IMG/VR virus record: IMGVR_UViG_3300021403_000003
Location: 1-49,951 of that record
DNA: 49,951 nt
Strand: one strand, 5' to 3'
Origin: a virus
Lineage: Duplodnaviria > Heunggongvirae > Uroviricota > Caudoviricetes
The translations under genes were made by a program, and so were the position numbers. Positions 8,010-11,783 of this stretch are shown one piece after another. Each line of letters opens with the position of its first letter. Within the stretch, counting starts at the first letter, position 1. Under the pieces are notes generated by a model that saw only the letters and a list, made by a program, of their open reading frames with translations, was not told the DNA's origin and did not search any database.

Positions 8010-8299
8010 TTTCACTGTTTGATTTGATGAATGGATGTTTTGAAGGGTATGGTGCCTTCGGAGCTTGGTTAAACGTTATCAAGCTTCGAAAAGATAGAGA
8101 AATCAAGGGAATAGTTTGGCAATTGATGATAGGATGGTGGGCTTGGGGAATTTTCAACCTTTTCTATTACCCACATCTCGATCAGTGGTTTTCATTTAGT
8201 GCAGGTTGTGTGTTGGTTACAGGTAATGCAGCTTGGTTGATTACATGGCTAAAGATTCTGAAGATACGCGCACGTAGCTTAAATGTGAAGAGCGGCTGA
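8006..8299 (+). CDS. small three-helix membrane protein (PQ-loop/SemiSWEET-like, tentative)
   Basis: Three hydrophobic segments, about 97 aa. The last 32 nt overlap the tRNA-like gene. Confidence 0.5.
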   Translation: MISLFDLMNGCFEGYGAFGAWLNVIKLRKDREIKGIVWQLMIGWWAWGIFNLFYYPHLDQWFSFSAGCVLVTGNAAWLITWLKILKIRARSLNVKSG

Positions 8300-8341
8300 C
8301 TCTAAATCGGCGAGATGTGGGCACTCAATCCATCGTGCGCT
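8268..8341 (+). tRNA. amber-suppressor-like tRNA (anticodon CUA) with atypical T-loop
   Basis: Acceptor GCGCACG(8268-74)/CGTGCGC(8334-40); T8 A9; D-stem GCTT/GAGC; anticodon stem GCTGA/TCGGC with loop CT-CTA-AA; 5-nt variable loop; T-stem GTGGG/TCCAT with non-canonical loop CACTCAA; U73; no encoded CCA (TCA follows). Confidence 0.75.
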
Positions 8342-8771: not shown

Positions 8772-9359
8772 ATGTGGTCTAAACTAAAAGCTTGGATAGT
8801 TGCTCATGCACCATTCAATTTGGCACCAGGAGCAATTGCTGCCGTGTTGTTCCTTATTTTCTTGATTCTTGTTGGTTTGTGGTTTGGTAAAGCACATGCT
8901 GCAACTGTGTTTGATGAAAAACCATATGTTCAATTTAATGTTGGTTCAACAGTGGTTCGTGGTGTTACACCAACATTTGGAATTGATTTGGTAGAACCAA
9001 CGAACCTTATCAAAGGTTCTGATATTGTTGTTGGGATGTTTGCTGTAGGTCGTTCTACTTGGAAGAACTGTCCAATTGATGGTAAAGGAAATCCTCAGTG
9101 TGAATCCAATTTGGTTTGGAGAGCAATTTTTGAAGATACAGTTTATGGAAATTCCTTTGGTGCTGTTCGTGCTGGAATTGGTATTTCTTACATGACCAAT
9201 TATCTTCCTTACAATGGCGGAAATGTTAATGCCAATCTTCAATTGGCTTATGAATTCTATAGAATCCCTATCACACTGACATATACTCATTTCTCATGCG
9301 GCGGATCTTGTAGTCCAAATGCTGGTAGAGATTTGTTGTTGTTGGGTTGGAGATTCTAA
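8772..9359 (+). CDS. outer-membrane beta-barrel, PagL (lipid A 3-O-deacylase)-like
   Basis: Signal/TM segment ending AHA-A; alternating strands; C-terminal YTHFSCGG..PNAGRDLLLLGWRF resembles the PagL H-x-S...PN.G motif; terminal Phe. Confidence 0.6.
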   Translation: MWSKLKAWIVAHAPFNLAPGAIAAVLFLIFLILVGLWFGKAHAATVFDEKPYVQFNVGSTVVRGVTPTFGIDLVEPTNLIKGSDIVVGMFAVGRSTWKNCPIDGKGNPQCESNLVWRAIFEDTVYGNSFGAVRAGIGISYMTNYLPYNGGNVNANLQLAYEFYRIPITLTYTHFSCGGSCSPNAGRDLLLLGWRF

Positions 9360-9605
9360 TTGTGGAAGTTCTTTGGACGCAAACCTGAAAAACCTTCTGG
9401 GAAATTTCAGTATCTTGGTCATTCTGTTCAAGCAAATAAGATTGATCTTTGGGTGAAATTTCCTGATGGTTCTACAGATTTGTTCCGTATTCCACTTGAA
9501 AAAGGTCTACTTGATCAATTTGAGATTGCGAAACAAGCAGAAAGACAAGGTATTAGAGTTATTGGTGAATTTATTGATGCCCAACTGCGGTTGGGAATTA
9601 TATAG
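9360..9605 (+). CDS. hypothetical protein
   Basis: 81 aa ORF abutting the previous stop; ends in TAG. Confidence 0.5.
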   Translation: MWKFFGRKPEKPSGKFQYLGHSVQANKIDLWVKFPDGSTDLFRIPLEKGLLDQFEIAKQAERQGIRVIGEFIDAQLRLGII

Positions 9606-9614
9606 GAGATTGAA

Positions 9615-10007
9615 ATGAAATTGTTACCATGGGTTACAGCTCTATTTTTGACGACAGCATTTGCTCAATCACAGAGTGATGAGCCACCAACAAGTCCGAT
9701 TCAAGCACAAATCTTGGGAAAAATTTTGTCAGGTAAAAAGATTGAATCAGATCCAGCACATAAAGTGCCAAATCAAGACGATCAACCTTTGACAGCTGTG
9801 ATTGTTACACAATGCAATCAAGTTGTTGCTGTATATTTCACAATGTCAAGTGGGAAATTGCTTCGTTTTGGAAAGGAAGCAGGAGTATCAGCCGAAACCC
9901 TTGTTGATTTGGCCTACAAGTCAGCTAAGTACAGTGAAAGAATTGAAGTTTCCTGTAATGGACTTGGTGAAACAGCCAGAGAACCACATTCCAGAAATGA
10001 CACATGA
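9615..10007 (+). CDS. secreted hypothetical protein
   Basis: Signal peptide MKLLPWVTALFLTTAFA; AGGAG SD; two Cys. Confidence 0.65.
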   Translation: MKLLPWVTALFLTTAFAQSQSDEPPTSPIQAQILGKILSGKKIESDPAHKVPNQDDQPLTAVIVTQCNQVVAVYFTMSSGKLLRFGKEAGVSAETLVDLAYKSAKYSERIEVSCNGLGETAREPHSRNDT

Positions 10008-10014
10008 GATTTAA

Positions 10015-10092
10015 ATGAAAGAAGATTACGAAGGTTTGTAGATTCCTGACACATATGTTCATTATGTTGCACGTGGTCCGCCATTCCCTTAA
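10015..10092 (+). other. candidate leader uORF with in-frame amber codon and RGPP motif
   Basis: ATG 10015 reads MKEDYEGL-[TAG 10039-41]-IPDTYVHYVARGPPFP-TAA, in the gap upstream of the Pth2-like gene. Confidence 0.4.
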
Positions 10093-10135
10093 ACTATTGA
10101 GCATCCCGTTCAAATCAAGTTTAAGGAGTCGAAAA

Positions 10136-10852
10136 ATGTTGGATTATAAGAAAGTTTGGTCTCACTTTCGTGTAGAAGGAACAGTGACACCATCACATGT
10201 TGTTGAGTTTTGTATCGTCAAGGCTGTATATGCATCTCGAGGAAATGAAAAGAAAGCCGAGAAGCTTCTCATTCAGTATCTATCAAAGGCTTTCACGCCC
10301 ATCACCCGTAAAAATAGGTTGGAAAATGGAGAGCATGAGTATTCATGCTTACAAAGAGCTATTCAAGGTATAAACAAATCATATGTTCTTGGAGTGCCAT
10401 CAATAGCACTCGAAAATTATGAGCTTCTTTATCATAACCTTCTTGATCATTTGACGTATCGTAAAGTTGCAGAATACAGTAAACGTAAGTACATGTATTT
10501 CTTTGTTCGTCAAGATATACCTAGAGAATATCAATTGGTTCAAACTGCTCATGTTGCATTGGTGAATGGTTGGCAAATCGCATTGGATAAAAGTATGGAT
10601 CCTGTTGATCCAAACAATATCTATTTCACTGTTGTTGGTGTACCTAATCTTGCTGCATTGAAGAAAGTAAGAGAAGATTTGCGTCATTTAGAAATTACTC
10701 ATAGTTTGTTTATAGAGCCTGATTTAGGAGATGAAGCAACATCTATTGCAACGTATCCTATCAAGGTTAATGAAAGAGGAAGACTTTTGACTTACAAGTT
10801 ATTGAGTTTTACTCTTACTGAGTTAGACCCTAAGATAGATCAAGTGGCCTAA
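10136..10852 (+). CDS. protein with C-terminal peptidyl-tRNA hydrolase type 2 (Pth2)-like domain
   Basis: KYMYFFVRQDI..EYQLVQTAHVA ... FTVVGVPNL..L ... FIEPDLGDEATSIATYP matches the Pth2 pattern (VRxDL, AQxxHA, EPD, TAIA). AAGGAG SD supports ATG 10136. Confidence 0.65.
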   Translation: MLDYKKVWSHFRVEGTVTPSHVVEFCIVKAVYASRGNEKKAEKLLIQYLSKAFTPITRKNRLENGEHEYSCLQRAIQGINKSYVLGVPSIALENYELLYHNLLDHLTYRKVAEYSKRKYMYFFVRQDIPREYQLVQTAHVALVNGWQIALDKSMDPVDPNNIYFTVVGVPNLAALKKVREDLRHLEITHSLFIEPDLGDEATSIATYPIKVNERGRLLTYKLLSFTLTELDPKIDQVA

Positions 10853-10855
10853 ATA
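10849..10855 (+). promoter_or_regulatory. T4-type late promoter (CTAAATA) at the 5' end of the tmRNA gene
   Basis: TAAATA variant of TATAAATA; the tmRNA base-pairing begins 2 nt downstream. Confidence 0.55.
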
Positions 10856-10856
10856 G

Positions 10857-11200
10857 GTCACGAAATGGTAGTAAACTGTTGATTAAAGGTGTTCAAGACG
10901 CGGGTGCAATTCCCGCCAGGTCCACCAACAGCACACTTGGCCAGAGGTCATGACTGGTCGTTTCTTGATGATGCCGAAAGGCTAACTGGAGTGTGCTTCT
11001 GATGGGCCTGACTAGCTTCGATTGGGCAAGTAATAACCCAATAGCTACCGGATTGGTGACTGCCCTAAGCAGCACAAAACGTTAAATGCAAACGATACTG
11101 CATTCGATGAAGATGAAGGCTTTGTAGAGCTCGCTCTCGCTGCCTGATTCTGAATCTGGGGTTTTGGTGGCTGTCCTTATCACCCAATCAGCCACCACTT
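10857..11200 (+). ncRNA. ssrA: circularly permuted (two-piece) tmRNA
   Basis: The 3' piece comes first: GAC, T-arm GCGGG-TGCAATT-CCCGC, CAGGTCC-A-CCA (ends 10927). The 5' piece starts GGGCCTG at 11004, giving a 7-bp acceptor stem with G3.U70. Long P2 helix between pieces: TGTTCAA/TTGGGCA, ATTA/TAAT, CTGTTG/CAATAG, GGTAG/CTACC, GTCAC/GTGAC. Tag ORF present. The 3' end is approximate (after hairpin 11166-11196). Confidence 0.92.
11088..11147 (+). other. tmRNA tag reading frame ANDTAFDEDEGFVELALAA
   Basis: Resume codon GCA preceded by TTAAAT; AND start and LAA end typical of proteobacterial ssrA tags. Confidence 0.9.
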
Positions 11201-11217
11201 ATATCATGAGGAAGTTA

Positions 11218-11445
11218 ATGGCTACAAGTGCTGATAAAGATCAATTTTCAATCATGATTGAAACAAGGGCCATCAATGATAAATGTAGTCATATTGATGC
11301 CATAATTTCTCATTGTGAGGAAACTGGGTTAGAAATTGAAGTAGTAAAATCTCTTATCAATATTCAACTAAAAAAGAAGATCGAAGCAGAAGCTCGTACC
11401 TTGAGGATGATCAAGGGAGGAAATGCTTCGAGGTTGCCAGTATGA
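11218..11445 (+). CDS. gp33: late promoter transcription coactivator gp33
   Basis: FSIMIE...IDAII.HCEE.GLEIE.VKSLI...LKKKIEAEA..L; GAGGA SD before ATG 11218; T4 gene 33-59-32 synteny. Confidence 0.85.
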   Translation: MATSADKDQFSIMIETRAINDKCSHIDAIISHCEETGLEIEVVKSLINIQLKKKIEAEARTLRMIKGGNASRLPV

Positions 11446-11783
11446 TTGAATTTGAACCAGAAAATCCTTTCAAAACTACATATGGCTTTGAAAGAAGACA
11501 AAATCCGAGGACAAGAGCAAATCTCAACGTTTATTTGGTCACAACTGATCAAAAAAAGAATGAAAGAAAGATAATCAAATTTCAGTCAATAAATATCAGT
11601 CGTTCTGGATTGCTGATTGATAGTGGTGATTTTCCATTCAGAAAGAACTCTTTTGTTGATTTGGCGTTTATGGCACCAATACAAGAAAATGTAAGTCGTT
11701 TGTATTACATGGATGCTTTTGTTCAACATACTGGCAATGGTAAGACAGGTTTCTCGATGACCAAGAAAGGTCCGAAGCCTTGA
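11442..11783 (+). CDS. PilZ-domain protein (putative c-di-GMP receptor)
   Basis: ERRQNPR (RxxxR) followed by INISRSG (D/N-x-S-x-x-G); 113 aa single domain. Confidence 0.75.
   Translation: MIEFEPENPFKTTYGFERRQNPRTRANLNVYLVTTDQKKNERKIIKFQSINISRSGLLIDSGDFPFRKNSFVDLAFMAPIQENVSRLYYMDAFVQHTGNGKTGFSMTKKGPKP

Follow-up and report, generated by a model that had tools for sequence, protein, structure and literature searches.

We find that a soil T4-like virus represented by the IMG/VR record IMGVR_UViG_3300021403_000003 carries, directly upstream of a gene for a protein with a peptidyl-tRNA hydrolase 2 (Pth2) fold, a 25-codon leader open reading frame (ORF) in which an in-frame stop codon precedes an Arg-Gly-Pro-Pro (RGPP) ribosome-arrest motif. 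The analyzed stretch, hereafter the window, comprises the first 49,951 bases of this 176,865-base record, which has a G+C content of 39.5%. Comparison of the leader with those of related loci supports a model whereby it acts as a translational switch that reports nonsense suppression by a transfer RNA (tRNA) encoded by the phage itself, a reading to which we assign a probability of about 0.75.

In this model, the Shine–Dalgarno (SD) sequence and the start codon of the Pth2-like gene (10123–10138) would by default be paired with 10076–10095, keeping the gene off. Ribosomes translating the leader would normally terminate at the TAG codon at 10039, too far upstream to disturb the hairpin. If a UAG-reading tRNA is active, for which the phage tRNA-CUA at 8268–8341 is the candidate, some ribosomes would read through this stop codon, make ..VHYVA-Arg-Gly-Pro and arrest once the second Pro codon occupies the A site, similarly to RGPP and RAPP arrest peptides. 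The arrested ribosome would cover the 5' arm of the hairpin, thereby freeing the SD and allowing the Pth2-like protein to be made. Readthrough, arrest and unmasking are steps that we infer and that the comparative data support. Because a permuted transfer-messenger RNA (tmRNA) gene lies directly downstream, it may, as this synteny suggests, belong to the same response. The likely purpose of the switch would be to couple ribosome-rescue capacity to the stop-codon readthrough caused by the phage tRNA. More tentatively, the tRNA might be mainly a trans-acting regulator or reporter and the leader its monitoring substrate, with the RGPP arrest lasting until the induced Pth2-like enzyme, perhaps together with the tmRNA, resolves it or lowers suppressor activity; if so, a feedback loop would balance stop-codon readthrough against ribosome-rescue capacity during infection. 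The features on which the model builds are the following.

8268–8341, plus strand: tRNA with anticodon CTA, of the amber suppressor type (Rfam RF00005, 37.7 bits, above the gathering score; anticodon loop CTCTAAA).
10015–10092, plus strand: leader ORF, M-KEDYEGL-[TAG]-IPDTYVHYVARGPPFP-TAA (sequence and translation; homologous leaders in 32 distinct loci).
10039–10041, plus strand: gate 1, an in-frame TAG followed by a purine (stop codon conserved in relatives).
10054–10056, plus strand: position of gate 2, TAT (Tyr) in the window and TAG or TGA in most relatives (alignment of codon blocks).
10072–10083, plus strand: Arg-Gly-Pro-Pro arrest core (codon-position entropy over 19 unique leaders; published RGPP/RAPP arrest).
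10076–10095, plus strand: predicted 5' arm of the hairpin, with the anti-SD CCCTTAAAC at 10086–10094, overlapping Gly-Pro-Pro and the last leader codons (minimum free energy (MFE) fold).
10097–10113, plus strand: small apical hairpin TTGAGC / GTTCAA (predicted fold).
10118–10144, plus strand: 3' arm of the hairpin, containing the SD AAGGAG (10123–10128), the start codon (10136–10138) and codons 2–3 of the Pth2-like gene (predicted fold).
10136–10852, plus strand: the putatively regulated gene, 238 amino acids, with a helical N-terminal domain and a C-terminal Pth2 fold (residues ~115–231; AlphaFold2, Foldseek).
10867–11147, plus strand: permuted two-piece tmRNA, tag read by eye as ANDTAFDEDEGFVELALAA (Rfam RF04321, 125.3 bits).

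The joint change of the anticodon and of both gates among related loci is the strongest evidence that the phage tRNA would read the leader. The upstream CUA tRNA that the initial annotation had named as an example of a readthrough tRNA is found by Rfam in the window, and a suppressor-type tRNA lies 0.2–2.7 kb upstream on the same strand in nearly every related locus. TAG gates occur with a CTA tRNA in 20 distinct loci, including the window, L008 (via the longer piece L133), L053, L130 and L132, and both gates are TGA in all three loci with a TCA tRNA (L072, L075, L128). There is no mismatch between gate and anticodon, and the hypergeometric chance of such a perfect match is 1 in 1771 if the loci are independent. 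A further locus, L127, has two TGA gates on a contig that ends before the tRNA position. Among the 20 double-gated leaders, 16 are TAG/TAG and four TGA/TGA, with none mixed and no TAA, and 39 of 46 gates are followed by a purine at +4. On a maximum-likelihood tree of the downstream protein, the four TGA leaders fall in separate places: L075 is basal in its clade, L072 groups with L036 and L090, L127 stands alone and L128 is the sister of the TAG-gated L129. Parsimony on this tree gives four gate switches, and at least two or three with weak nodes collapsed. The TCA tRNAs resemble the neighboring CTA tRNAs in their D- and T-arms, and acceptor stems and discriminator bases differ among the suppressor tRNAs of relatives.

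The same data bear on the idea that the gate senses termination efficiency in general, i.e. the activity of RF1 or RF2 or any condition that raises readthrough, and not the phage tRNA specifically. In the autoregulation of prfB, an in-frame stop codon reports the balance of release factor versus decoding tRNA, and several leaders lie on contigs without a captured suppressor tRNA. However, a perfect gate–anticodon match with repeated switches is unexpected if host release factors alone matter, and double gates would make basal readthrough negligible. We therefore regard a general termination sensor as improbable. As a separate observation, the suppressor-type tRNA at 2794–2870 of L131 has an irregular anticodon loop according to ARAGORN (6 nucleotides (nt), CTCTAA, with a closing A.A mismatch), and the leader beside it has a single TAG and HGPP.

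The loci compared here were retrieved by protein only, through an alignment search of viral and metagenome contigs, a second protein search, the contexts of four homologues and further look-ups. Since retrieval relied on the downstream protein alone, the sampling is unbiased with respect to the leader. The initial annotation had proposed a search upstream of related phage Pth2 genes for conserved ORFs of this kind; 25 of 27 unique full-length, i.e. two-domain, relatives have a gated leader with Pro-Pro codons 55–85 nt before the start codon. The two exceptions are one truncated sequence and L059, which sits on a long branch and is without a leader. Leaders beyond these 27 were found in L052, L053, L127–L130, L131 and L132. 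Far from being absent in relatives, the design is shared by 32 distinct related loci, where it keeps a fixed spacing to the start of the gene. Each leader begins with a short ORF or the tail of a longer one; after one or two stop codons in the same frame come 3–12 codons and Pro-Pro, in the form of [R/H][G/A]PP or xPP-stop, and the SD of the gene forms the 3' arm of a hairpin. Typical examples are M-LDDYEGL-stop-IPDT-stop-VRYVARGPPSP-stop in L002 and MLIRI-stop-IPDN-stop-ILLYYGHGPPCLIC-stop in L075, and mini-leaders, for example M-R-stop-LKPP-stop in L006, are found in a clade further removed.

Other routes to relatives returned little. Megablast of 9000–11500 against cultured phages gave no match, a query with the single protein found no related loci in viral contigs where the alignment query succeeded, and a long DNA pattern of the leader had no match in viral contigs. 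The sole match of an HGPP DNA pattern in viral contigs, L126, was discarded as a high-GC chance match with neither tRNA nor gene. Among sequencing runs, the probable source DNA sample was the only one listed as containing this DNA, and no RNA run was among them. A tblastn search of the cultured phage collection found no cultured carrier of the leader and returned one-domain Pth2-like genes only, in Acinetobacter phage ME3 and Salmonella phage Arash.

In the window, the reading ATG-KEDYEGL-TAG-...RGPP-TAA given by the initial annotation is exact in coordinates and translation: the ATG (10015–10017) is followed by KEDYEGL, the TAG at 10039–10041, IPDTYVHYVA, RGPP, FP and the TAA at 10090–10092, with RGPP spelled CGT GGT CCG CCA. 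The leader ATG lies 7 nt past the stop codon (10005–10007) of the upstream ORF 9615–10007, and the ATG of the downstream gene at 10136 is preceded by the AAGGAG SD. RGPP, RAPP or HGPP occurs three times in the six frames of the 176.9-kb genome, the leader being one of these occurrences, and none of the predicted proteins of the 176,865-nt genome contains RGPP, RAPP, HGPP or HAPP. This rarity, together with the recurrence of the whole arrangement at a constant spacing to the gene, indicates more than chance.

Two lines of evidence support the idea that the stall motif is selected as a peptide and would be accessible by readthrough only. First, the test of synonymous variation suggested in the initial annotation gives a clear protein-coding substitution pattern at the RGPP run: over 19 unique long leaders, entropy summed by codon position 1/2/3 is 0.59/1.11/5.92. 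The core Arg is encoded by CGT, CGA, CGC, CGG and AGA, the Gly/Ala position by GGT, GGA, GGG, GCG and GCT, and Pro by all four of its codons. Pairwise differences in the core are 352 synonymous-type versus 97 amino-acid-changing in the leader frame, compared with 29/440 and 41/423 in the other two frames. A similar tendency is seen in the four codons separating the gates (entropy 2.66/2.81/5.06; differences 70/141 in frame versus 31/129 and 4/149), as exemplified by ATT CCT GAC ACG (IPDT) and ATA CCC GAT AAT (IPDN). Second, starts that would bypass the gates are avoided. The initial annotation had seen no standard in-frame start after the TAG and had concluded that ribosomes would reach RGPP only through amber readthrough; indeed, the codons from TAG 10039 to RGPP hold no in-frame ATG, GTG or TTG, nor do any of the 267 codons that separate the first gate from PP across 29 unique leaders, while start-like triplets make up 9.2% in the other two frames of the same leaders. 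Variation confined to third positions and the lack of bypass starts together suggest that the stall motif is translated and that it can be reached through the stop codons only.

The stretch might also be conserved because the Pth2-like protein has a longer N terminus that begins at ATG 10055 or 10064, in frame with 10136, and this frame is indeed open from 10055 in the window, L002, L003, L004, L008, L009 and L011. In most other relatives it is interrupted by a stop only a few triplets ahead of the start, variation in it is nearly all amino-acid-changing (the 29/440 frame above), and all homologues align from the SD-proximal Met. This explanation was rejected and retains almost no probability.

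The assignment of the core to the RAPP/RAGP/RGPP class of arrest motifs, made in the initial annotation, agrees with published work, in which RGPP is the most robust arrest sequence among RAPP-like cores, tolerates diverse preceding sequence and is refractory to EF-P, RAPP arrests as well, and HGPP was recovered as an arrest sequence in random screens (PMC12992588). Motifs of this class are strongly avoided in proteomes (PMC12992588), and their structural mechanism is a block of peptide bond formation with the incoming Pro (PMC10951233). By analogy with these studies, the ribosome on the phage leader would be expected to stall with CCG 10078–10080 in the P site and CCA 10081–10083 in the A site (PMC12992588, PMC10951233). 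RAPP and HGPP, both present in relatives, belong to the alternatives known from this work. CGPP, HDPP and the xPP-stop mini-leaders do not, and the stall is less certain in the relatives that have them.

The predicted hairpin would link such a stall to the downstream gene. The MFE fold of 10069–10144 (-18.7 kcal/mol, z = -2.3) pairs 10076–10095 with 10118–10144, and the same fold is kept in a 143-nt context. In each of the 30 leaders folded, the 13-base SD window has 6–12 bases paired to a segment located -6 to +17 nt from the first Pro codon. Because the stems vary in register and length between loci, we used folds and shuffles of each sequence, with other genes as background, instead of column-wise covariation; a shuffle test of helix length gave a combined p ~4e-17 over the leaders, and stem sequences differ widely between loci. 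A compensatory change from an A-T to a G-C pair separates the window and L002 (CCTTA..TAAGG) from L003 (CCTTG..CAAGG). From footprint geometry, a ribosome ending at 10039 would stop well short of the 5' arm, and one arrested at 10078–10080 would cover it. The element does not look like a transcription attenuator, which would have alternative terminator and antiterminator structures and a U-run: the hairpin ends at the SD and the start codon, and no terminator-like site is present on the plus strand between 9500 and 11400, including the interval between leader and gene. The gate–anticodon match, peptide-level selection and the SD hairpin in every folded leader thus lend comparative support to the proposal of the initial annotation that a sensor of suppression or stalling controls the Pth2-like gene.

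The uniformity of the hairpin, the most uniformly conserved feature of the family, also speaks for a pure RNA structure that masks the SD and is opened otherwise than by leader translation, with RGPP and the in-frame stops being incidental; the CCNCCTT of the Pro-Pro codons moreover resembles an anti-SD. Against such an RNA-only element, the codons for Arg and Gly/Ala, which precede the core stem, vary synonymously only, including a switch from CGN to AGA, PD(T/N) between the gates is kept through third-position changes, in-frame starts are avoided and gate codons covary with the anticodon. We consider it very improbable.

Phage-encoded suppressor tRNAs are typical of recoded phages, which raises the question of whether TAG, or TGA, is a sense codon here and the leader an ordinary small ORF. 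Under genetic code 11, 245 non-overlapping ORFs cover 91% of the genome, and 25 of them end in TAG; past these terminal TAG codons, another stop usually follows shortly, after a few codons. Besides tRNA-CUA, the phage has 32 tRNA genes, clustered at 158–172 kb, none of which is a suppressor. In the TGA-gated loci, TGA is a usual stop codon (13 of 34 ORFs). We conclude that genomes with this leader are not recoded, and with a standard code in the genome the leader is not an ordinary ORF of a recoded phage; coding density, TAG-ended ORFs with their short extensions and TGA usage led us to reject a reassigned code, which has a negligible probability. As a stop codon, TAG closes 9 of 124 ORFs in loci with TAG gates, a smaller share than the 7 of 34 in loci with TGA gates.

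Several observations weigh against a functional switch, in the window or in the family as a whole. The T-arm of the window tRNA is GTGGG-CACTCAA-TCCAT, with the T-loop CACTCAA instead of TTCGAAT; G.U pairs stand at both ends of its T-stem, including 53-61, and no CCA is encoded. Its D-loop is AAATGTGAA, without GG, so that the tRNA fails the canonical T-loop/D-loop elbow (GTTCRANYC, G53-C61, G18 G19) that relatives have. Its Rfam score of 37.7 bits is the lowest of the family, compared with 56–72 bits in relatives, whose suppressor tRNAs (26 aligned with the window tRNA) have arms of canonical form and encode the CCA end. The SD of the leader ATG at 10015 is, as the initial annotation had remarked, weak (of the GAGA type only), and GGAGG precedes the leader ATG in the closest relatives L002 and L003. 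The window leader has a single gate, its second position being TAT, and the switch looks weakened here. At the level of the family, gate and tRNA share a contig in only three TGA/TCA loci, and the loci are related by descent. The Arg position is taken by His, Cys, Thr, Lys or Gln in some relatives; as Arg is reported to be irreplaceable in ApcA, ApdA and ApdP (PMC12992588), the stall in these relatives would have to be weaker or of another type (PP-stop). The likeness of the Pro-Pro codons to an anti-SD implies that part of their conservation is at the RNA level. Finally, about 28% of other genes in the same loci show comparable SD pairing in MFE folds, a background against which the uniformity of the 30 leaders is nevertheless informative.

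The defects of the window locus could mean that the family switch is real but a decaying relic in this phage, with tRNA-CUA dead, gate 2 lost and the leader either off or responsive only to UAG readthrough at the level of the host. ARAGORN calls neither the window tRNA nor the window tmRNA, and the lack of a tRNA call, together with the non-consensus T-loop, the T-stem G.U pairs, the missing CCA, the low Rfam score, the TAT at gate 2 and the weak leader SD, fits such decay. However, gate 1, RGPP, the hairpin, the SD and the gene are intact; the cloverleaf of the tRNA is intact as well, with perfect acceptor and anticodon stems and the CTCTAAA loop kept; and single-gate leaders stand beside normal tRNAs in L022 and L090. 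A single gate with a weaker tRNA could also be a compensated state. On balance, a relic seems unlikely.

The gene downstream of the leader had been described as Pth2-like. Its 238-amino-acid product has no Pfam match at E <= 0.01, with homologues present in metagenomes, and a profile search of PDB sequences with the 238-amino-acid family returned no Pth2. An AlphaFold2 model from 27 sequences has a predicted local distance difference test (pLDDT) score of 90.4, and Foldseek matches it to the PDB entries 2zv3, 3erj, 1wn2, 1q7s and 1xty, which are archaeal Pth2 proteins and human Bit1, with probability 1.0 and template modeling (TM) scores by target of 0.68–0.77. The AFDB clusters matched are named peptidyl-tRNA hydrolase, and TM scores by target reach 0.81 over PDB and AFDB. 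With no Pth2 match from the Pfam and PDB sequence searches, the domain is identified by fold comparison only: in the model, the C-terminal domain has a Pth2 fold (PF01981 type), and the Pth2 part of the earlier description thus stands at the level of fold, while the role as a hydrolase is putative. Residues R125, Q126, D127, Q136, H139, E194, P195, D196 and T202 are invariant in the family. An Atlas search with the N-terminal domain (residues 1–115) found no recognizable relative. A permuted tmRNA lies directly 3' of the gene in all long-leader loci, and in the window it starts ~15 nt past the stop codon of the Pth2-like gene, suggesting that both are probably on one transcript.

The leader resembles several known regulatory systems and differs from each of them. 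With the RAPP/RGPP arrest peptides ApdA, ApdP and ApcA, and with SecM and its RAGP, it shares an R-[A/G]-P-P core, an upstream ORF in the same direction and, as far as predicted for the phage leader, a stall site placed to open an SD-hiding hairpin. It differs from them in having 25 codons, no similarity outside the core, a stop-gated motif, a phage origin and a Pth2-like target. Unlike the monitoring substrates of the Sec/YidC pathways (SecM, MifM, VemP and ApdA/ApdP/ApcA), it has no signal or hydrophobic segment, and the downstream gene encodes a Pth2 fold, not localization machinery. Similarly to the phage leader in the proposed model, ermCL, ermBL and the cat and cmlA leaders are very short ORFs in which a stalled ribosome remodels a hairpin and frees the next SD; their trigger is an antibiotic in the exit tunnel, whereas that of the phage leader would be the decoding of a stop codon. 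The trpL, hisL and pheL attenuators and T-box leaders likewise read out one tRNA species, but they respond when a charged sense tRNA becomes scarce and have a transcription terminator as their output, whereas the phage leader would sense the presence of a suppressor tRNA and act on translation initiation. The in-frame UGA of prfB, which encodes RF2, also senses termination versus alternative decoding; the phage leader lacks a frameshift site, its product is not a release factor and its readout would be an arrest peptide and an SD hairpin. In recoded phages (crAss-like, Lak and others), which also encode tRNAs with the anticodon CUA or UCA, the targets of suppression are recoded late genes, while here the code is standard and the conserved cis target is a regulatory leader. 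The C-terminal tail of mammalian AMD1 comes close in that only ribosomes reading through a stop codon reach the downstream arrest sequence (PMC13025110). That system is eukaryotic, relies on basal readthrough of the stop of the main ORF, limits further translation of the same mRNA and involves no dedicated suppressor tRNA, whereas the phage leader would switch on a downstream cistron.

Our literature search turned up no bacterial or phage precedent for a stop-codon-gated arrest leader. The best-supported interpretation is thus an arrest-peptide and SD-unmasking switch with what would be a new input, nonsense suppression by a co-encoded tRNA. Suppressor tRNAs also occur in phages with a standard code, and their targets are usually unknown. 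In the genome note on phage Summit, for example, possible target genes of the suppressor tRNA were not identified (PMC9022506). The leader family gives such orphan tRNAs a conserved and testable cis target. Joining stop decoding as an input to an output of the ribosome-rescue type, it would link nonsense suppression, peptidyl-tRNA recycling and trans-translation. The pairing of TAG and TGA with CTA and TCA speaks for motif specificity and would be a rare natural case of coordinated codon–anticodon switching in a regulatory element. Placing two gates ahead of a strong arrest core would make the leader a possible natural biosensor of amber or opal suppression, and it is tempting to speculate about uses in genetic-code expansion.

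The loci also contain further elements of interest. In many unrelated phage contigs (L020–L124), stand-alone Pth2-like genes of ~105 amino acids have a tmRNA gene as a neighbor and frequently a CTA tRNA as well; a TTGACA...TATAAT-like site immediately precedes these one-domain genes, which have no gated leader, and one-domain Pth2-like genes of other phages are mostly without a leader. This suggests a wider phage module of a Pth2-like gene, a tmRNA and a suppressor tRNA.

In the 170 nt upstream of the gene in L127, L128 and L129, an upstream ORF ending in ...DEYEGL closes at TAA and is followed by a mini-leader with its own ATG, while in the window, L002 and L009 the leader itself ends in ...D(D/E)YEGL ahead of the gate. 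This comparison suggests that the leader arose from the 3'-terminal part of a gene upstream.

Genes resembling gp59, gp33 and the clamp loader lie close to the leader locus. The flanks of the module at 8772–9359 and 11442–11783 hold a weak PagL-like match, under the Pfam cut-off, and a PilZ-domain gene, above the cut-off, respectively. Finally, ORF 9360–9605 stops at a TAG in frame with the next ORF, 9615–10007, which has the signal-peptide-like start MKLLPWVTALFLTTAFA; amber readthrough at the end of the former would fuse the products of the two ORFs.

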